Positions 1-46,579 of a DNA stretch of 64,000 bases are shown piece by piece (the first letter of the stretch is position 1; every line of letters starts with the position of its first letter). The stretch lies in sequence record PQ850594.1, one strand, 5' to 3'. Source of the DNA: Escherichia phage AnnaHegner_Bas87. Both the position numbers and the translations under genes were made by a program. The notes beneath the pieces are model-generated. The model was not told the origin of the DNA, searched no databases, and saw only the letters and a list, made by a program, of their open reading frames with translations.

Positions 1-1542
1 ATGTCGTTAGATAAAGAAATTTATGAAGCTCTAACTGGAGACAAGTTGAGTATAGAGGAAAAGAAAGCTTTGCTCAATATGTTAAAAGAAAGGGACCAGT
101 GGAGAAAATATAACAAGATGTTGGCTTTTAAAGCTTACGACTTTCAGAAGAAATTCTATGCAGCAGGGTTGAAGCATCGCTTTCGATTCCTGTGCGCAGC
201 TAACCGTGTTGGTAAATCTTACAGCGAGGCATACGAGTTTGCTTGTCATGTCACAGGTCGCTATCCAACTTGGTGGACAGGTTACAGGTTTAATCGACCC
301 ATATTGGCTTGGGCAGTAGGGATTACAGGGGACTCTACAAGAAAGGTATTGCAAAAGGAGTTGTTTGGAACACCTATCGGAAAGGATATGAATCTAATAG
401 GAACAGGTGTTATTCCTCGTGATGCTATCGTATTGGACACGATAGAACGAGATGGGAACAAATTACAGATTGTACAAATTAAGCATCAAAACGCGAGAGG
501 CGAGTTTGACGGTTTAAGTACATTAGAGTTCCGTTCTACCCAACAGGGTGAACATACATTGATGGGTGCTACAGTTGATTATATTTGGCTGGACGAAGAA
601 GATCCATATGAATCTATGGCAATCTTCTCTCAGTGTGTAACACGTACGCTTACAACTAAAGGTTTAGTTACTATTACAGCTACACCAGAGAACGGTTTAA
701 CAGAGCTGGTGGATAAGTTTATGAAAGGTGAAGGAGATGAGAACACAGGTTCTCTGTATTTCCAGAATGCTTCTTGGTGGGATGCTCATGTAGATTTAGG
801 TGGACATATCACTGACCAAGATATTAAAGACATGACTGAAGGTATCCCAACATGGCAGTTAGAGATGCGTTCAAAAGGTATGCCGTTGCTTGGTTCTGGT
901 TTGATTTATGATGTATCAGATGACATGATTAAGTGCGATCCCTTTGAGATACCTGATACGTGGAAACGTGTTTGTGCTATTGATATTGGTATCGATCACC
1001 CGACAGCTGCTGTTTGGACAGCATATGATGCTAACACTGATACGATTTATGTTTATGACTGCTATAAAGAAGGTGGGTTTACTCCGGTGTACCATGCACC
1101 AGCTATTAATGGTCGTGGTCAGTGGATTCCAGTTATTCTTCCTCACGATGCCGATAATATTGAGAAGGGAAGTGGTTCGTCTGTTGCTCAATTCTATAAG
1201 AATGCAGGGGTTAATGTACAGAGTGAGACCTTCTACAACAAGATTGGAATGGATGGTAAGAAGAACTTCTTTGTAGAGCCGGGAATTACTGATATTCGTG
1301 AACGTATGATGTCAGGTCGTTTTAAAATCTTTAATATTGCTTCGTGTGCTAAACTCTTTGAAGAGAAAGCTCGCTATCACCGTAAGGTTGGCAAGATTGT
1401 TAAGGAACATGATGACTTGATGGATGCTATGCGATATTCAGCTTGTTCTGTAACACATCGTGGACGTAGTAAGCATGATGCTAGTTATGGTAGTTCATCG
1501 CTTTATCAAGACAATATTAACAGATGGAATCAGACCTACTAA
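1..1542 (+). CDS. terminase large subunit
   Basis: 513-aa ORF with Walker A-like AANRVGKS near N-terminus; first gene of structural block, immediately upstream of portal. Confidence 0.75.
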   Translation: MSLDKEIYEALTGDKLSIEEKKALLNMLKERDQWRKYNKMLAFKAYDFQKKFYAAGLKHRFRFLCAANRVGKSYSEAYEFACHVTGRYPTWWTGYRFNRPILAWAVGITGDSTRKVLQKELFGTPIGKDMNLIGTGVIPRDAIVLDTIERDGNKLQIVQIKHQNARGEFDGLSTLEFRSTQQGEHTLMGATVDYIWLDEEDPYESMAIFSQCVTRTLTTKGLVTITATPENGLTELVDKFMKGEGDENTGSLYFQNASWWDAHVDLGGHITDQDIKDMTEGIPTWQLEMRSKGMPLLGSGLIYDVSDDMIKCDPFEIPDTWKRVCAIDIGIDHPTAAVWTAYDANTDTIYVYDCYKEGGFTPVYHAPAINGRGQWIPVILPHDADNIEKGSGSSVAQFYKNAGVNVQSETFYNKIGMDGKKNFFVEPGITDIRERMMSGRFKIFNIASCAKLFEEKARYHRKVGKIVKEHDDLMDAMRYSACSVTHRGRSKHDASYGSSSLYQDNINRWNQTY

Positions 1543-1547
1543 AAATA

Positions 1548-8486: not shown

Positions 8487-11264
8487 ATGATCGTTTATAA
8501 CAACCAAGCACCAGCTAATCCTAATAATGTTGGTCAGTTTGGTGCTACAGAAGGCTCTATCGGAGCCTATAAACAAGCAGCGGAATATGCTGCTGATTCT
8601 AAATATTGGGCACTTTTAGCAGAATCTAAGTTTGGGACAATTGATGATCTGATTGCACAGGTAGAGCGTCTATACCAACAAGGTGTTTTACTCCGAGAAG
8701 ATATTGAAGATTTGAAGCAGGATTTTGCTGCTCAAGACGTTCGCTTAATGAACCTGATTGCTCAAACAAACGCTGCTGTTGCAGATGCCAATAACTCAGT
8801 TGCACTTATTGATCAAAAGATTGTAGAAGTCCAGAAGCAATTGGATATTCTAATGGATATGAAGGTTACTGTCACTACCCTGCCTCCGGGTTCTCAAGCT
8901 ACTGGCTCTTTTGATAACCAAACTGGTGAGATTAAGCTGGGAATTCCTGAGGGTGAAAAAGGTGCAGATGGCTCTGTAACTGACTTATCAACAGTATCTT
9001 CTGGGGTTCCCGAGTTAGGGGATTTAGGTTTTTATGTAGACAAAGATGATAACACTGTACATAAAACCACCCTAGAAAACATTGCTAACCTGATCCCTTC
9101 TGTTCGCTCTATCTCTGTCAATGGTGGAGAGGCTCAGGATGGTGACGTTGCTTTGGATATTAATAAAACCACAGTAGGTTTAGGTAATGTTCTTAATGTA
9201 GCTCAGTACAGTCGCCAAGAGATTAATGATAAGTTTGACAAACCTATTAAGATTTATCAATCCAAAGCAGAAGCAGATGCAAATGCTCAATATCGTCAAG
9301 CCGGAGAATCTGTTTTAGTTTGGGAAGACACTCAGTATGTATTCTACACTGTTGCTGCTAATAAAACCTTAACTCCAGTTAAATCTGAAAGTCGTATATT
9401 GACAGTAAACTCAAGATCTCCCGACTCTACAGGTAATATTGATATTACAATACCTACAGGGAACCCTTCTCTATATTTGGGTGAAATGGTAATGTTTCCA
9501 TATGACCCTAACAAAACTGTAGCATACCCCGGTGTGTTGCCTGCTGATGGTAGATTAGTTTCTAAAGAAAACGCATCTGACTTAGGTCCATCTCTTGTTA
9601 GTGGACAGTTACCAGTAGTTAGCGAAACCGAGTGGCAAGCTGGTGCTAAACAATATTTCTCTTGGGGTAAGTTAGCTGATGGTATCACTGATGCAGACTC
9701 TACCAACTTCATTAATATTCGACTTCCAGACTGGACTGGTGGAGAAGCCATTCGTGCTCCAGATTCTATTAAAGACTCTAATTACAAAGGTCGTATCCAG
9801 AATCAGATTCCTTACATTGTGACCGTAAATGGTAAAGGTCCAGATGATGCTAATGGTAATGTGGTATTATCTGCCTCTAATATCGGAGCAGCTGCTTCTG
9901 GCGCTAACTCGGATATCACTTCACTCTCCGGTTTAACTACACCACTATCTCCAAGTCAAGGTGGTACAGGGGTAACCGATCTTGGAATGCTTCGTAGGGC
10001 TATTCTAGTTCAGGGTGTAGAGTGTAATGATCAAGCAGGTCCACAGTCTTATAACAGCTACAAATCCCCTAATGGGACATATACTTTTAAAGTTGATAAC
10101 TCTGGGTTAGTTGCTGCTATTAATACAGGCACAGAAGCAGTTGTTCCTTTTGCAGTAAGTGCAGGAGGTACAGGAGGCACTACTCCGGCTGAATCTCGTA
10201 GTAATTTAGGGCTTGACAGGGTTGATCAAAGAGAATTAGAGACTGTAATCTACTCTCCCGACAAGAACTCCTATATCTTTATGAACAACGGAGATTGGGG
10301 GTGCTTTAGTAATGTTTCAGGGACTATAGCTCTTTCTATTCCGCGTGGTGGTACAGGTGCACAAAGTGTTGAGGGAGCTAAAACTAATCTCGGAATCGAT
10401 AAGTTTGTACAAAGTTCTACGGATACTAAGGTGTTGGATGGTGAAGGGACTCATACATTCTTTGTAGCCGGAAATGATTGGGGGTATTTTAATAACGCTG
10501 ACTCTGTACGAGTTGCGCTTCCTGTAATAAGTGGCGGTACAGGAGGCACTACCCCAGCTCATTCATGCGAAAATCTATCTGCGCTACACACTCAATATGG
10601 AGCTGACACTTTTTATGGTAGTGAAGATTTACCTTCTGGAATAGGTTTTTATTCTGGTGACTCTTCTCCTTTTCCGGGAGGCAACGGGGCGCCTTACACT
10701 TACGCCGAAATTATGACTATCGCTGAAGGTGGTCGTGGTGGTAACTGGTCTCAGATTGGTTTCTCTACTATAACTAACCAAGCTCCTCGGTATCGTCAAA
10801 GAACTAATGACCCAGCTTTAATTACAAACTGGAGAGATTTCTTAATCCGAGATTTAAACACAACAGTAGATGTTAATGGTTTTGTCAAAATAGCGTCGCC
10901 TATTGTGAAAGTTAAGTCTGACGGCTCTTTTGAAGTTAACGATGCAGCGGTTGGTGCGACAGTAGAGAAGCTGGGGGTTGGTATTTATAAGGTTTCTGGT
11001 GTCTTAGGTTTTAACTCTGACCCTTCTTGGGGAGGGACTTCTGGTGGATTCTCAGTTCCTTACAACTCTAACGGATTGGCTCTGCTCTGGGTCGACTATG
11101 AGATTGAAGAAACTGGTGATATTATCCTGAAAACCTACCATCGTGTCCATGCTGATGCTCCTGTTTTTGCTAGAAATGAAATAGATGGATTAGCGGATGG
11201 GGATCCTGTAGATATTCCAGAAGGTCGGTGGATTGATCTTCGTGTCGAAATGCCATCCAAGTAA
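8487..11264 (+). CDS. tail fiber protein with repeated GGTGG-T motifs
   Basis: 925-aa ORF; N-terminal coiled coil; recurring ...SGGTGGTTPA.S..NLG.. segments typical of phage fiber repeats. Confidence 0.55.
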   Translation: MIVYNNQAPANPNNVGQFGATEGSIGAYKQAAEYAADSKYWALLAESKFGTIDDLIAQVERLYQQGVLLREDIEDLKQDFAAQDVRLMNLIAQTNAAVADANNSVALIDQKIVEVQKQLDILMDMKVTVTTLPPGSQATGSFDNQTGEIKLGIPEGEKGADGSVTDLSTVSSGVPELGDLGFYVDKDDNTVHKTTLENIANLIPSVRSISVNGGEAQDGDVALDINKTTVGLGNVLNVAQYSRQEINDKFDKPIKIYQSKAEADANAQYRQAGESVLVWEDTQYVFYTVAANKTLTPVKSESRILTVNSRSPDSTGNIDITIPTGNPSLYLGEMVMFPYDPNKTVAYPGVLPADGRLVSKENASDLGPSLVSGQLPVVSETEWQAGAKQYFSWGKLADGITDADSTNFINIRLPDWTGGEAIRAPDSIKDSNYKGRIQNQIPYIVTVNGKGPDDANGNVVLSASNIGAAASGANSDITSLSGLTTPLSPSQGGTGVTDLGMLRRAILVQGVECNDQAGPQSYNSYKSPNGTYTFKVDNSGLVAAINTGTEAVVPFAVSAGGTGGTTPAESRSNLGLDRVDQRELETVIYSPDKNSYIFMNNGDWGCFSNVSGTIALSIPRGGTGAQSVEGAKTNLGIDKFVQSSTDTKVLDGEGTHTFFVAGNDWGYFNNADSVRVALPVISGGTGGTTPAHSCENLSALHTQYGADTFYGSEDLPSGIGFYSGDSSPFPGGNGAPYTYAEIMTIAEGGRGGNWSQIGFSTITNQAPRYRQRTNDPALITNWRDFLIRDLNTTVDVNGFVKIASPIVKVKSDGSFEVNDAAVGATVEKLGVGIYKVSGVLGFNSDPSWGGTSGGFSVPYNSNGLALLWVDYEIEETGDIILKTYHRVHADAPVFARNEIDGLADGDPVDIPEGRWIDLRVEMPSK

Positions 11265-24762: not shown

Positions 24763-24771
24763 TAATGTATA
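24763..24771 (+). promoter_or_regulatory. phage promoter-like motif TAATGTATA
   Basis: exact 9-mer 37 nt upstream of ATG 24808; AAGGAG RBS between. Confidence 0.45.
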
Positions 24772-31334: not shown

Positions 31335-31899
31335 TAATCCACTCTAAATCCTCAACTGCCTCTTCTACAGAACGGTCATTAAAGAGGAGGTAGGTTGGTA
31401 GGTTTGTTCCTTCAATATAAGAACGGGAGTCTCCTTCAAAGGAGCAGCCATCGCGGAGAATCTGAACTACTCGAACATGGAAGTGTTTCTCTAGTTCTTC
31501 AACTTCTGCTTTAAATCCACCATCAGAGAAGACGATAACATCATTCTGTGATGGGATACGTTGTTGAATACTGCTAACAGCAAGTTTACCCATGCAGGTC
31601 TCACCAAACATAGGCTTCAGGTAATTCTCGCTAGTTGCAATCATCAAGTCTCGAACTGACTTACCGTCCCATTCAGGACGGCTATGTTCTTTCCACTCAC
31701 GGTCGTTGTACAGCTCCATGAACTCGTAAAGAGGTAGACCTAATGCAGCAGCAGCCACTCGATACATAGGCTCCTTAAAAGCCTTTACATGCGGCCTAAA
31801 CTCGGTGTTACCAAGTGTTTTCTCTAACCAAGAATTAGCGATTGTATCTTTACCACAACCCGGTGGTCCATTCAGAATTACTACTAATGGTTTACTCAT
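31303..31899 (-). CDS. P-loop nucleotide kinase (dNMP kinase candidate)
   Basis: Walker A GPPGCGKDT at N-terminus; 198 aa. Confidence 0.5.
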   Translation of the reverse strand: MSKPLVVILNGPPGCGKDTIANSWLEKTLGNTEFRPHVKAFKEPMYRVAAAALGLPLYEFMELYNDREWKEHSRPEWDGKSVRDLMIATSENYLKPMFGETCMGKLAVSSIQQRIPSQNDVIVFSDGGFKAEVEELEKHFHVRVVQILRDGCSFEGDSRSYIEGTNLPTYLLFNDRSVEEAVEDLEWIIEGTRRGLYV

Positions 31900-32549
31900 T
31901 ATTGAATCATCCCTTGAAGATCTTCTTTATCAAAGTGCTTCTCTACTACCGCTTCATACAGATCACGATTCTCTGAATAACGACGATAGAAGGTTCCGTG
32001 TGAAATTCCCAACTCTTGCTGGATGTGATCATGTGGGATGCCGAGAAAGAGCATTGAGAACATGCTTGCCATCTTACGGTTTTCCATAATGTCACTCAGG
32101 TCTTGGAAGAAGAAAAAGATTCTAGATTCCAAGAACGGGTCTCCAGTAGAATCATGCTTATCCATCGCAATCTCTAAAGGACTTTCCCATGAATTCATCT
32201 CAGGAGGTCTAAACATATCAGCCTCTGGAATAGAGTAGATACGTCGGTCTCCAACTGTCTGACGATTAGAACGAATCGACCAGATGATATTCTTGACACG
32301 ATAAGTCATGTGCTCAATATCTTTTTCATCAGTGAGCAGAAGTTCTTCTTGCTTTGCAAATACAAAACGCCAAGCGTTCAGTAACACTTCCTGAGCAACA
32401 TCCTCTGCCTCGTGATAATCTTTAATGTCATACATAAAATACTTATGCACAACTTTCCAGTTCTCTCGATAAAATTCATCGAAGGTTGGATAATATTTAA
32501 TAGGAATGCCATGAATACGATAGCGTGTGGGTGTTGTCTTCTTCTTCAT
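31899..32549 (-). CDS. phage-encoded sigma factor (sigma-70 family, ECF-like)
   Basis: region-2-like ...[15 protein letters not shown]... and C-terminal HTH-like ...[17 protein letters not shown]... Confidence 0.55.
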
Positions 32550-32798: not shown

Positions 32799-33094
32799 TG
32801 TATTCCTCTCTCCTTGAGAGCTTTAAGTAAACCATTATGGTTAGCAGCACAGGTTGTATAATTATCCTGATACCACTCAAGTGTTGTTGCAAATGCCACT
32901 CCCTGTGCACTCTGAAGTAAAGGGAGGTCTACATCACATTCAGCTTTTAGGTTTGTTGGTAAGGGCATTAGCTGCCTGCTGTTGTCGCTCATTGAACAAG
33001 CCATCAAACTAGAAGCGAGCAAAATCACCAAACAACTCTTTTGCTTTTTCTTTGTAAGCATTTTCTGCACCTTCTTGAGTGCTATGATAACCAA
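32795..33094 (-). CDS. lipoprotein, outer-membrane spanin (Rz1-like) candidate
   Basis: signal peptide with lipobox LMAC; likely start at internal Met (33061); overlaps 3' end of HNH gene. Confidence 0.4.
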   Translation of the reverse strand: MVIIALKKVQKMLTKKKQKSCLVILLASSLMACSMSDNSRQLMPLPTNLKAECDVDLPLLQSAQGVAFATTLEWYQDNYTTCAANHNGLLKALKERGIQ

Positions 33095-33533
33095 GCCAAA
33101 TTACTTTGTTTTGATATCCGATACGAGCACTCCATTTATTAATATCTGACCTGTATCCTACACCTTTTATTCCAGTTAAAGAGTTCTTTTGAACTATTTT
33201 ATTGGCATTGTTGAGGACAGGTGTTGCTTTTCTTAGATTGCTCCAAGAGTTATTAGACTTATCTAAATCTTTATGGTCTATTTGGAAATCGGGAATTTCT
33301 CCAGTTTTTATATACCAAGCAACTCGGTGAGCTTTGTATGTCTTTCTCTGAAAATTCAATGTTACATAACCAGCTTTTGTTTTACACCCTGCAACCTTTC
33401 CTGCGAGTCTTGAGTTCCACTGAGCGCTCTTATCTTTAGAATGTTTCCAGTACAGAAGACCGGAAGCCTCGTCATAAGACAGATATTTAATTAATTCTTT
33501 AATTTCAGTGCCTCCGCTGCTTGTTGTTGTCGT
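33009..33533 (-). CDS. HNH-AP2 homing endonuclease; N-terminal region lacks a canonical start codon
   Basis: open frame reads ...LSYDEASGLLYWKHS...AGYVT-NFQRKTYKAHRVAWYIKTGEIP...IDHKDLDKSNNSWSNLR... then AP2-like domain; only in-frame ATG/GTG/TTG is TTG at 33359. Confidence 0.55.
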   Translation of the reverse strand, partial: TTTTSSGGTEIKELIKYLSYDEASGLLYWKHSKDKSAQWNSRLAGKVAGCKTKAGYVTLNFQRKTYKAHRVAWYIKTGEIPDFQIDHKDLDKSNNSWSNLRKATPVLNNANKIVQKNSLTGIKGVGYRSDINKWSARIGYQNKVIWLGYHSTQEGAENAYKEKAKELFGDFARF

Positions 33534-34631: not shown

Positions 34632-34690
34632 ATTAATATTTCCTTATATAGATTTAAGATTGTTGCTCTCTTTGAGCGGTTTGTATACTA

Positions 34691-34699
34691 TATACATTA
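34691..34699 (-). promoter_or_regulatory. phage promoter-like motif TAATGTATA (minus strand)
   Basis: ~60 nt upstream of start 34631. Confidence 0.4.
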
Positions 34700-34761
34700 C
34701 ACTTATACAGATAAGGTTCTATTATACTATAACCTTTTTGGTAGTAGATAATGACAAGTAG

Positions 34762-34770
34762 TAATGTATA
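34762..34770 (+). promoter_or_regulatory. orphan plus-strand copy of TAATGTATA motif in ORF-free region
   Basis: no plus-strand ORF downstream; faces antisense to phosphatase gene. Confidence 0.3.
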
Positions 34771-34964
34771 TATGGTATAGCTAGTAAAGCTATTGCAGGC
34801 TTGTATATTGGGCAATCATTGTAACCCTTGCAAGTACCGAAGGGCAGGAGACACCTGCGAGATAAAAATAGAGAATTAAGGAAATCCTTGATTTAGGTTG
34901 AGGACTCCTAGGACTTTGATTCTCTATTAAAATCAAAAGAAAACTTAACTTAAAACAATAACTT

Positions 34965-35603
34965 CTACCATTCTAAAAGACCTTTAAAACTAGTTTGTTC
35001 TACTGTTCTCTGATAAGGTAAGTTAGATTCTGCTTGTTTGCTTAACATCTCTTGTACTTTATCAGTAATTGGATAATCTTTTTGTAATAAAGAAGCTATC
35101 CACTCTTTCCTACTTTCCAGTTCTTTTCTAATCTCTTGCAGAGACACAGCTTTGTAATCAATTTGTTCCATAGAGGTACAAAAATATCTCCAATCTTTGA
35201 TAGTAGAGTTATGAGTATGAGCATAGATATTATACTTTCCTCTCATTTCATCAGAGTGAATAGGAATATGAGTTACCCAAAATTCTTTGTATTTATAATC
35301 ACCACTGATGTGTCTAAAGACTTTCATCATATCAGGGAGAAGTTCTAATCTGTCATGATTTCCTAAGACAAGATGTTTCTCTCCCTTTACTTCAGCGATA
35401 ATATCAAGTGCATATTTCTCAAACACCCAATCACCTGTAAAGAAAGTTTTATCACGTTTAGTAACATGGTCGAACGCTGCTAAGATAGCTTTGTCATGTT
35501 CTTCAATACTACTAAACTTCTTTCTAAAATTACAGATGTTACGATGGCCTAGGTGACCATCACCTGCAAAATAAACTTCAGCCATTCTCGTATGTGTCCT
35601 CAT
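34965..35603 (-). CDS. metallophosphoesterase (Ser/Thr phosphatase-like)
   Basis: GDGHLGH and LVLGNHD motifs of calcineurin-like phosphoesterases. Confidence 0.65.
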   Translation of the reverse strand: MRTHTRMAEVYFAGDGHLGHRNICNFRKKFSSIEEHDKAILAAFDHVTKRDKTFFTGDWVFEKYALDIIAEVKGEKHLVLGNHDRLELLPDMMKVFRHISGDYKYKEFWVTHIPIHSDEMRGKYNIYAHTHNSTIKDWRYFCTSMEQIDYKAVSLQEIRKELESRKEWIASLLQKDYPITDKVQEMLSKQAESNLPYQRTVEQTSFKGLLEW

Positions 35604-37905: not shown

Positions 37906-39753
37906 TTAGTGAGTGTGATTCCAGTTTAACCCAATCTTACAGTCAGATGCCAGAGGGCATTCCATTTTGAGATACTCACCTGCTTTACGAACACACTCTT
38001 CAGTGAGGGTACGAAGTTTGTTAACATCGTCACGATGTACAGTGAACTGGCCTTCATCATGCATGTCAATAACCTTCGCACAACGAACACCATCACGCTC
38101 AATCCATTTATTAAGGAATAGCATTGCATACTTCATAACAATCGCCCCAGCGCTCTGTAAGAGAGTATTTAAGGCTTTATGAACCATAACCTTTCCAGTT
38201 GCATCTCTTCTCATTGTAATACGACGTCCATCCACACCGTAGATGTATCCACTTTGTGCTTTCTCTGTCATACGTTCAATAAGAATTGCAATACAAGGAT
38301 TCTCTGCTAAGAATCTTGCCCTCATGACAGCTCCTTCATCAGAGCCACCGCCTACGATGCTTCCTAACTTAGCGTCACCAGCTCCGTAGTTGAATGCGTA
38401 GATAAATGTTTTAGCATTATCACGAGTAGGAAGGCCAGCAAGTTTTTGGTTATGTGAGTGAATATCTCCTTCTAAAAGAATATCTCTGTACATAACAGCA
38501 GAAGCTAGACCGCGTTCAGCTTCTCGTTTCTTAGCCGGGTTGTTTTCTCGCTCTGCTTCAGCGAGCATCTCACGACACTCTTTAATAAGGTAGTGAGCTA
38601 GCATCCTCAGCTCAAGACCAGAGCCATCGTAACCTAAGAAGATTTCACGACCAGCAGGAACATAGAACTTATAGGCACCTACAGGTTTGTCTTTCTTGCC
38701 CGGTTTTCCCACTTCGTAGATAGTGTTAGTACCCTTTCGTACGTAACACCCATCAGGGATATGGTTGGTAATGGTGAAAGGATGGTTATGACTATCGTCT
38801 GAGGAATAGTCAGATTGAAAAAGACTGCGGCACTCGTGACCAAACAAACCGCGAGAAGGAATATTAACAACAATGCGATGTTTAAAACGAAATGTCGGAG
38901 TAGCGCAGCTATTAGCTTCGGCGGACAACTTACCATCTTTACGTTCCTTGTCGATAAGCCCGCTAATCAAACCTAGCCTGTGAGCCGCTACAACGCGTCT
39001 CTTAAGCAAACTTCCTACACCCCCTAGCTCACCCCCAAGCCCTTCTTCAAGAGTCTCCTCAAGGTTTGTAGGGGCTGTAGGCCACTTGTTTGATGTAGCC
39101 AAAGCTTTTTTGATTTCATCAAAGGTTACAGGCTTCTTCCTATTAGGGTTAAGACCTAAACCGCTGACATAGGCTTTCATATAATTGACAGTGTGATAAC
39201 GGAAGTGCTTATCCAAAAACCTTCGGATATCAGCATCTATCATCTCTGCTGTCTGTTTCTCTTTAGCGTTACCTCGAATCCAAGCAGAATACCATGCAGA
39301 GTATGTACCATACTTCTTCATAGCTTTACGAATTTCAAAAGTATTCCAAGGTTTCTTAGAATAATTCCACTCTGGAGGTATAAAACCTTCATCCATCAAG
39401 GCTTCTTTAATACGTGCATCTTTTGATGGGTCAAAATCTACATACTCAACGCAAGTAAACGCCCCACCGATATCTTCTCTTTTAAGACCAACCCTATCGC
39501 AATAGAGCTGAGGCCACTTCTGTAAAGCACCTGACTTCTTAAAAGGCTTAGCATAAGTTGAACCATCCACCCGCATTTTAGGGAGGAGAGGAATCAGTTC
39601 TTTATCAATATTGACAATAATCTCTTTGAGAAGGTGAACAAACCACCGAGCGTTTCTTCTGTTGAAGTTGACTCCATGCTTCGCTTGTTTTGAGATTATA
39701 TCAGCGACTGTCATCTCCGTTATGAAAGGTAACTTATCAGGGTTATCCATCAC
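37906..39753 (-). CDS. DNA polymerase, family A (polymerase domain)
   Basis: motif A YDGSGLELRMLAH, motif B RDNAKTFIYAFNYGAG, motif C MHDEGQF. Confidence 0.8.
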   Translation of the reverse strand: MMDNPDKLPFITEMTVADIISKQAKHGVNFNRRNARWFVHLLKEIIVNIDKELIPLLPKMRVDGSTYAKPFKKSGALQKWPQLYCDRVGLKREDIGGAFTCVEYVDFDPSKDARIKEALMDEGFIPPEWNYSKKPWNTFEIRKAMKKYGTYSAWYSAWIRGNAKEKQTAEMIDADIRRFLDKHFRYHTVNYMKAYVSGLGLNPNRKKPVTFDEIKKALATSNKWPTAPTNLEETLEEGLGGELGGVGSLLKRRVVAAHRLGLISGLIDKERKDGKLSAEANSCATPTFRFKHRIVVNIPSRGLFGHECRSLFQSDYSSDDSHNHPFTITNHIPDGCYVRKGTNTIYEVGKPGKKDKPVGAYKFYVPAGREIFLGYDGSGLELRMLAHYLIKECREMLAEAERENNPAKKREAERGLASAVMYRDILLEGDIHSHNQKLAGLPTRDNAKTFIYAFNYGAGDAKLGSIVGGGSDEGAVMRARFLAENPCIAILIERMTEKAQSGYIYGVDGRRITMRRDATGKVMVHKALNTLLQSAGAIVMKYAMLFLNKWIERDGVRCAKVIDMHDEGQFTVHRDDVNKLRTLTEECVRKAGEYLKMECPLASDCKIGLNWNHTH

Positions 39754-46330: not shown

Positions 46331-46339
46331 TATACATTT
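46331..46339 (-). promoter_or_regulatory. phage promoter-like motif (AAATGTATA, minus strand)
   Basis: ~20 nt upstream of start 46311. Confidence 0.3.
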
Positions 46340-46363
46340 GAGAGTTATCATATCTACTACCAA

Positions 46364-46579
46364 CTAGTAATAAACCTTGCTGGATATGAATCCAGCACTG
46401 TTATGGATATTTTCAATCCAACGATGAATCTCCACCTTTTCAGCGATTCCTAAAGCTTTTGTAGCTTTTATAGTTTTCTTAGCAAGACGAGCCTCTTGTC
46501 TTGTGTTGAATAATTGAATACAATCACCACCAAGAGCTTTGTTAGCCCATTTAGTACGAACTGCCCATAATTTATCCAT
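46364..46579 (-). CDS. small protein, paralog family member 3 of 4
   Basis: 71 aa; TRQEARLAKK ... SKVYY. Confidence 0.45.
   Translation of the reverse strand: MDKLWAVRTKWANKALGGDCIQLFNTRQEARLAKKTIKATKALGIAEKVEIHRWIENIHNSAGFISSKVYY

Follow-up and report, generated by a model that had tools for sequence, protein, structure and literature searches.

The DNA analysed here (64,000 nucleotides (nt), called the window below) comes from Escherichia phage AnnaHegner_Bas87 (PQ850594.1), a phiEco32-like podovirus (Kuravirus, Gordonclarkvirinae) showing 99.8% identity to phage NC-B. We studied the interval 34632-34964, a 333 bp gap bounded by the start of a 246-amino-acid gene and the stop codon of a metallophosphoesterase gene (Table 1). 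Two back-to-back copies of a promoter element read by the phage sigma factor gp36 were found in this gap. The copy facing the minus strand is the published promoter P40; the copy facing the plus strand is very probably one more gp36 promoter, followed by a conserved, structured and non-coding block. All genes neighbouring the plus-facing motif are on the minus strand.

An earlier note, made from the letters of the window, had described the gap as AT-rich and free of open reading frames (ORFs). The GC content (0.29-0.40 per 100 nt) agreed with the first statement. The second holds in the sense that no reading frame is conserved, although mechanical minus-strand ORFs with TTG start codons do exist (53 amino acids at 34654-34815 and 48 amino acids at 34790-34936). 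Indels of 1, 2 and 1 nt separate the relatives across these ORFs and break every frame, so a hidden small protein was considered and rejected. Past the plus motif, no plus-strand ORF of at least 30 amino acids starts before 35136, in keeping with the note.

[quoted passage not shown] Their shared element is tAATGTAtA, and transcription starts 6-8 nt downstream of it (PMC8948821, PMC4331800, PMC4281155). The 9-mer TAATGTATA, which is this published element, was present in both places reported by the earlier note. Four exact copies exist in the window against 0.73 expected, a number reached by none of 100 shuffles, and the remaining two are located at 24763 (plus strand) and 41041 (minus strand). 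The local pair is part of an inverted repeat whose 12-nt arms match perfectly (TATATACATTAC / GTAATGTATATA) and are 60 nt apart. Because the window is phiEco32-like and the 9-mer is the gp36 element, the minus copy corresponds to the middle promoter P40, and the claim that it serves the downstream gene stands; its 9-mer was invariant in an alignment of 19 relatives. The plus copy is in none of the published six-promoter lists (PMC8948821, PMC4331800, PMC4281155), which were built by searching only same-strand DNA upstream of genes (PMC4331800).

From the listing of all AATGTA sites with their flanks, the plus site was found to have the layout TTGGTAGTAGATA-N11-TAATGTATA. The P68 homologue of the window, on the minus strand at 46331-46363 and directly 5' of a gene, reads TTGGTAGTAGATA-N11-AAATGTATA. 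Thus a 13-nt block is identical in the two sites (46351-46363, minus strand, in the P68 homologue), the 11-nt spacing is the same, and the common pattern is TTGGTAGTAGATA-N11-(T/A)AATGTATA. A looser pattern, GGTAGTA-N(14-20)-AATGTAT, occurred only twice in the window, at these same two sites, where none was expected. The TTGGTAGTAGATA block of the P68 homologue starts one base past the stop codon with which the preceding ORF (46364-46579) ends.

The cryo-electron microscopy structure of the open complex of gp79, gp36 and RNA polymerase (2025) was solved on P68 (PMC12276001). In this structure gp36 recognises G-37 and A-34 through its C-terminal domain and A-14, A-13, T-12 and G-11 through its N-terminal domain, and mutations at these six positions of P68 compromised or abolished transcription (PMC12276001). 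All six bases are at the equivalent positions in the plus site. Since the plus site has G-37 and P40 has not, the orphan site is closer in sequence to the best-characterised gp36 promoter than its annotated neighbour is. It thus has the element and the upstream contacts of a gp36 promoter, without a gene downstream on its own strand. From the published 6-8 nt distance and the P68 numbering, the transcription start is predicted at A34777 (range 34776-34778).

Considering the full set of contacts and the conservation described below, we predict with good confidence that the plus copy is a real and previously unlisted seventh gp36 promoter, a near-duplicate of the middle promoter P68. A scan of the region for sigma-70 promoters gave only a weak 9/12 site on the plus strand (34696-34725), which was not conserved in the relatives. 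The authors of the SU10 study took the same TTGGTA at P68 as a sigma-70 -35 box (PMC4281155), and on this reading P68 and the new promoter might each have a weak sigma-70 activity as well.

The promoter was compared in 25 distinct sequences, consisting of 19 GenBank or IMG/VR phages and six metagenome contigs. The GGTAGTA block was invariant in all 25, and the -10 element was intact in all except one. The spacer was 11 nt long in every sequence, with at least nine different sequences among them. Between the two back-to-back promoters the number of invariant columns fell to the minimum of the neighbourhood (3/30 in 34701-34730 and 10/30 in 34731-34760), and the distance from P40 to the plus motif was 53, 63-64 or 182-184 nt; ES17-type phages have an insertion of about 120 nt here. 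Such a combination, a spacer fixed in length and free in sequence with freely evolving flanks, indicates selection on a two-part promoter.

The insertion of ES17 (locus L011, 1300-1443, minus strand) is likewise found in SDYTW1 and in the metagenome loci L027-L031. In ES17 it carries an ORF for a basic protein of 47 amino acids, the ATG of which abuts the -35 block of the plus promoter. This ORF itself has neither an obvious promoter nor an obvious Shine-Dalgarno sequence.

This conservation also bears on the weakest explanation of the locus, that the promoter is a non-functional inverted duplication of the P40 or P68 motif and that the conservation reflects a recombination boundary between gene modules: the perfect 12-nt inverted repeat, the abrupt stop of family-wide similarity near 34932 where gene content differs, and the reshuffling of modules within the region (MN05 and SR02 share an H1 type with different middles) would suit it, but neither half of the promoter varies and the spacing is always 11 nt, although the spacer sequence diverges and the DNA between the two promoters both diverges and gains insertions, the plus site has -35 contacts that P40 lacks, and the compensatory changes in H1 given below indicate selection on the fold, so that we regard it as very improbable.

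After the plus promoter follows a non-coding block of about 155 nt (34777-34932) that is conserved in every relative. By blast, each of 98 kuravirus records was found to hold a single copy of its 96-nt core, in no case overlapped by an annotated feature. In 34851-34910, 27-28 of 30 columns were invariant, while the neighbouring coding sequence had about 20 of 30, which makes the block a local maximum of conservation. The family-wide similarity ends at about 34932, beyond which the gene content differs between phages.

Folded as the plus strand, the block forms four hairpins, named H1 to H4 (Table 1), the first of which begins at the predicted +1. The segment of the linker and H3 is almost frozen, with only one loop base and one linker base varying in 20 sequences. 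On the minus strand H4 is followed by an invariant run, TTTTTATCT. In the ECBP2-, ES17- and MN05-type phages an unrelated and longer hairpin, module B, stands in place of H2, and the linkers TTGCA and ACCGRAAGG that flank module A or B stay fixed. Module B itself shows a compensatory change (CCG/CGG versus CUG/CAG) between ECBP2 and ES17, and MN05 and SR02 have the same H1 type with different middle modules. Both short palindromes reported by the earlier note were present, CTTGCAAG at 34827-34834 in the 3' arm of H2 and TCCTAGGA at 34906-34913 in the upper part of H4. Because they are segments of hairpin arms, the protein-binding hub proposed for them is not needed as an explanation.

Table 1. 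Features of the interval 34632-34964 and its two flanking genes. Positions are those of the window.
Feature	Position	Strand	Evidence or remark
Gene phi32_40 homologue, "SSB-like", 246 amino acids	33891-34631	-	Served by P40; 83% identity to phiEco32 gp40
5' untranslated region of gene 40, from predicted P40 start to ATG, with hairpin GCTC-AAAGA-GAGC	34632-34684	-	Alignment, 19 relatives
-10-like element TAATGTATA of P40	34691-34699	-	PMC4331800, PMC8948821 supplement; SU10 Table S2 ("between CDS37 and CDS38")
Variable spacer between the back-to-back promoters	34700-34737	.	Within the region's least conserved stretch
-35-type block TTGGTAGTAGATA of the predicted new promoter; G-37 = 34740, A-34 = 34743	34738-34750	+	Matches the block of the P68 homologue
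-10-like element TAATGTATA of the predicted new promoter; AATGTA = -14 to -9	34762-34770	+	Intact in 24/25 relatives
H1, ATAGCT-AGTAA-AGCTAT, begins at predicted +1	34777-34793	+	Two compensated pairs
H2 ("module A"), holds palindrome CTTGCAAG	34799-34835	+	Relatives' alignment and consensus fold
Invariant linker ACCGRAAGG; H3 at 34844-34858 (GCAGG-AGNCA-CCTGC, here with AGACA loop); A-rich linker GAGATAAAA	34836-34866	+	
H4, long and irregular, about 22 bp, interrupted, with U-G and G-U pairs; holds TCCTAGGA	34867-34928	+	
A/T-rich tail between H4 and the phosphoesterase stop	34929-34964	.	Family-wide conservation stops at about 34932
Metallophosphoesterase, 212 amino acids	34965-35603	-	Pfam Metallophos, PHROG 547; convergent to the predicted RNA

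The evidence for an RNA came from covariation and from the strand preference of the fold. Two pairs of H1 show compensatory double changes (UA/GC; CG/UA/AU). We counted 7 compensatory cells in H1 where shuffles gave 0.9, and the signal collapsed in slid controls; for such an analysis the set of sequences is shallow, the relatives being too close to each other (effective sequence number 1.14). A G-U pair in the middle of H1 was found in 9 of 20 sequences, and H4 contains invariant U-G and G-U pairs together with one A-to-G change that is paired only on the plus strand. Since the G-U pairs of both hairpins become A-C mismatches on the minus strand, they favour the plus strand. The H1 of phiEco32 folds on the plus strand only (-3.4 versus 0 kcal/mol). 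The RNAalifold consensus energies of the two module types were -39.2 and -46.3 kcal/mol on the plus strand, compared with -29.2 and -40.5 kcal/mol on the minus strand, and H4 alone gave -21.7/-23.5 versus -15.7/-19.0 kcal/mol. The GC skew is positive over 34700-34900, as on the sense strands of this phage and unlike the flanking minus-strand genes, which is weak evidence. Taken together, the G-U pairs and the folding energies favour the plus strand, and a plus-strand RNA is probably produced from the predicted promoter.

The earlier note had suggested a small non-coding or antisense RNA pointing into the 3' end of the phosphatase gene. The RNA part of this suggestion is supported by the comparison, through the full P68-type promoter, the conserved and structured block that favours the plus strand, and the lack of a conserved ORF. 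An antisense action on the 3' end of the phosphatase gene is the weak part: conservation breaks off at about 34932, which leaves 33 nt to the stop codon (34965-34967) of the convergent gene, and most relatives have another gene at this place.

Promoter completeness, conservation, non-coding nature, H1 covariation and plus-strand bias are all drawn from sequence and comparison, and from them we infer transcription itself, the position of the 3' end and the function of the RNA. The best explanation of the whole locus, which we hold with moderate confidence, is a gp36-dependent small RNA that would converge with the upstream operon at a shared H4 and play a local boundary role. Host RNA polymerase loaded with gp36 and assisted by gp79 would bind GGTA (-37 to -34) and AATGTA (-14 to -9), start at about A34777 and transcribe rightward, against every neighbouring gene. 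The non-coding RNA made in this way would measure about 155 nt in this phage, and up to about 180 nt where relatives carry the longer middle module. Its 5' end would fold into a hairpin from +1, followed by the exchangeable hairpin domain of the middle and a short GC hairpin, and its 3' end into the long hairpin H4. From the other side, the leftward P58 operon, passing through the phosphoesterase gene (gene 41 in phiEco32), would reach H4, after which the U-run of the minus strand follows. H4 would then be the meeting point of two transcription units, just 5' of the independent promoter P40, and P40, back to back with the new promoter, would restart leftward transcription.

Such an RNA would be made at middle times, would act as a stable regulatory RNA at the operon boundary and would be fully complementary to the leftward read-through RNA. 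Its pairing, together with convergent polymerases, could insulate the P40 unit (gene 40, spanins and the sigma gene) from upstream transcription. Marking or insulating the P58-P40 boundary is the most likely function on the sequence evidence, and the unusual conservation of H4 may be partly explained by constraint on both of its strands.

Several observations weigh against this boundary role or the RNA behind it. The covariation is restricted to H1; H3 and H4 never vary, so that it speaks neither for nor against their pairing. We found no convincing terminator on the plus strand, where H4 is followed by TTAAAAT (UUAAAAU) and the U-run belongs to the minus strand. There the tail of H4 is UUUUUAUCU, the stem is AT-rich, the hairpin is 62 nt long and the terminator scan made no call at H4. 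In the metagenome contig L027 (ERZ1034915 NODE-75, about 8940-8960) a -11G>A change turns TAATGTATA into TAATATATA. No kuravirus transcriptome was found in the literature searched, and the original mapping paper (Pavlova 2012) may name the plus site. The near-invariance of about 95 nt is more than a cis-antisense RNA needs, and it could come from a protein- or DNA-level function or from frequent recombination at a module boundary. As a separate observation, the change in contig L027 removes a gp36 contact and yields a perfect sigma-70 TATAAT hexamer.

A broader alternative is that the locus encodes a new structured small RNA family made by a phage sigma factor, which acts in trans (protein sequestration, counter-defence) or primes replication and does more than tidy a boundary. 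We consider this rather unlikely. Its trans-acting version, in which the promoter and the RNA are real and the RNA binds or sequesters a protein, seed-pairs with mRNAs or decoys a host defence, is unlikely by itself. The nearly invariant 95 nt or so include loops and linkers, which suits a protein or ribonucleoprotein partner better than a pure cis-antisense RNA, and a hairpin at +1 with a long 3' hairpin is typical of stable small RNAs. The sequence of H3, H4 and their surroundings also has the GGA motif four times and a recurring (G)GGACU, but about two GGA are expected and the excess is not significant. The U-rich 3' tail of Hfq-dependent small RNAs is lacking. Perfect complementary 10-mers elsewhere in the phage numbered 22, the same as the 22 expected from shuffles, and RNAduplex against the translation-initiation regions of the phage returned uninterpretable long duplexes.

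Searches for a known family or a host counterpart were likewise negative. Rfam 15 gave no match for the element at the gathering threshold, and at permissive E-values, with both the window and the ES17-type variant, the best E was at least 0.5 and belonged to unrelated families; ARAGORN detected no tRNA or tmRNA. Looking for host mimicry or origin, we found no match of the element by blastn in 5,426 complete E. coli genomes, and an exact-pattern scan of 185,579 GTDB genomes found none. A covariance model revealed no second copy in the window and, in seven relatives from the Grimontviridae (7-11, GAP52, Privateer-like, Aeromonas and Vibrio phages), none at the syntenic locus. Five of these have a space of about 50-100 bp 5' of the gp40 homologue and Vibrio phage Vp_R1 has one of 243 bp; GAP52 has no such space, and an HNH gene abuts there.

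A second rival places the function on the minus strand, with the block as a terminator or RNase III-type processing hairpin of the P58 operon and the promoter acting by interference only. Convergent transcription or polymerase occupancy would then be a roadblock, an insulator or a help to P40 through supercoiling, and the RNA itself would be irrelevant. H4 followed by the invariant TTTTTATCT on the minus strand agrees with this, as does the position of the phiEco32-type H4 about 10 nt past the stop codon of the upstream gene 41, and the back-to-back arrangement of P40 and the new promoter makes mutual effects plausible. However, H1-H3 would lie downstream of such a terminator and would need neither conservation nor covariation, and the G-U pairs and the folding energies favour the other strand. 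The stem of H4 is AT-rich with a long interior, and the terminator scan passed over it. So did the annotators of SU10, 4E8 and Paul, who marked the canonical terminator after gene 40. In ES17-type phages a small minus-strand ORF lies downstream of H4. We consider this explanation quite unlikely, somewhat more so than the trans-acting RNA.

A third rival takes up the replication-origin-like region that the earlier note had proposed: the RNA of the orphan promoter would form an R-loop or a primer in the A/T-rich DNA beyond H4. A phage-specific promoter that lacks a gene and faces against transcription is in keeping with this, as is the A/T-rich stretch (GC about 0.28-0.33) past the structured RNA. 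The locus is also among replication genes (DNA polymerase at 37906-39753, with the putative SSB gene adjoining), and no origin is described for these phages in the literature examined. Against it, the region contains no iterons or conserved direct repeats, and the cumulative skew has no inflection at 34.7 kb, its sole turn being at the switch of gene orientation at about 29-30 kb. The A/T-rich segment is not conserved, being 36 bp here and replaced by a small 108-bp ORF in most relatives, and the syntenic regions of distant relatives are without such an element. An origin at this place is improbable.

Compared with the published gp36 promoters, the new promoter has the same -10-like element, and with P68 it shares the 13-nt block, the spacing and G-37/A-34. 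Unlike the published six, it lies upstream of no gene and is directed against the whole middle cluster, with an activity that is predicted from the sequence.

For the boundary RNA, the nearest functional analogy is OOP of phage lambda, to which sar of P22 is similar. OOP is a short structured RNA from an orphan promoter within an operon, directed against the main flow, with a stem-loop end near the 3' end of the convergent gene; it overlaps the end of the cII coding sequence and works through RNase III. The predicted RNA is likewise short and structured and would come from an orphan promoter directed against an operon. It differs in that its conserved part stops before the convergent ORF, which itself differs between relatives, and in that its promoter would be read by a phage sigma factor and that of OOP by sigma-70; there is no sequence or Rfam relationship between the two.

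The primary origin of T7, oriF and oriG of T4 and RNA II of ColE1 are transcript-primed, and the primer RNA of ColE1 is structured. The only likeness to these systems is a promoter without a gene followed by A/T-rich DNA, whereas a conserved unwinding element and a skew signal are lacking here. H4 also resembles bidirectional intrinsic terminators in being bordered by an A-tract and, at its opposite end, by a T-tract, at the place where two units would converge. It differs from them by its AT-rich stem of about 62 nt with interior loops, by a good U-run on the minus strand only and by the negative scan.

In type I toxin-antitoxin systems such as Fst/RNA II of the par locus, a gene for a small hydrophobic peptide converges with a small RNA at a shared terminator. 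A similar arrangement is seen in phiEco32-type phages, in which a hydrophobic ORF of 35 amino acids (phi32_41) runs towards the predicted RNA and stops about 10 nt short of H4. This ORF is on the minus strand at 1530-1637 in phiEco32 (locus L009) and at 1676-1783 in ES17 (locus L011), where its strongly hydrophobic product is MVTYILYFLAFLGIIFLSILIEFGLSKLVNYLGNK. However, the window lacks it, as do several relatives in which the RNA block is unchanged, so the RNA cannot depend on it.

The product of the 246-amino-acid gene showed no sequence match in Pfam or PDB, and its family, PHROG 6599, has no function assigned. A single-sequence AlphaFold model of it was unusable (pLDDT 35). Its C-terminus (...STFEEDDSPF) is like the acidic tail of bacterial SSBs, and only this tail and a few GenBank annotations suggest the SSB-like label. 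The 5' untranslated region of gene 40 is nearly invariant, with 24/30 columns fixed in 34641-34670, and its GCTC-AAAGA-GAGC hairpin sits just 5' of the ribosome-binding site. Rfam returned for this region only a non-significant echo of DUF2815-RNA (E = 8.3). Gene 32 of T4 has a translational operator, and by analogy the hairpin could be such an operator if the protein is truly an SSB.

The metallophosphoesterase on the other side looks like a fusion, with residues 3-177 corresponding to PHROG 547 and residues 178-212 to the C-terminal part of PHROG 14248. In 4E8, SU7, MN05, ES17 and others it is replaced by two overlapping ORFs (504 bp and 165 bp), which suggests either programmed frameshifting or a frameshift by which the phages differ.

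The gene for the gp36 homologue occupies 31899-32549. A few genes downstream of the interval, at 33009-33359 on the minus strand, is a free-standing gene for an HNH endonuclease (PHROG 99, E = 1.7e-44). In relatives, HNH genes are located elsewhere around the locus, for example Bas89_0037, and GAP52_044 directly upstream of the gp40 homologue. These placements are consistent with the region being a hotspot of insertion and module exchange. In 4E8 (locus L001), a coding sequence of 195 bp annotated as a hypothetical protein (g037c, 1352-1546, minus strand) spans P40, the new promoter and H1-H2; it is probably a spurious gene call, because its frame is not conserved in relatives.

What is new here is a predicted seventh gp36 promoter together with an unannotated small RNA that these phages probably make. 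phiEco32 is the reference system for the phage-encoded sigma factor gp36 and its partner gp79, and its map is quoted as having six gp36 promoters. The region is blank or mis-annotated in all 98 public genomes, with a coding sequence called across it in 4E8, and kuraviruses are widely used, being represented in the BASEL collection and among several therapy candidates. The prediction is cheap to test, since it gives an exact start site and single-base knock-outs of the promoter that would spare P40, and existing RNA-seq data (PRJNA1225266) bear on it; they come from E. coli NC101 sampled 10 min after kuravirus infection, and PMC12803456 mapped these reads to the host only. If it is true, a conserved seventh promoter facing the wrong way would alter the transcription map of phiEco32, and the conserved RNA would add a non-coding player to the model of how these phages take over the host RNA polymerase.

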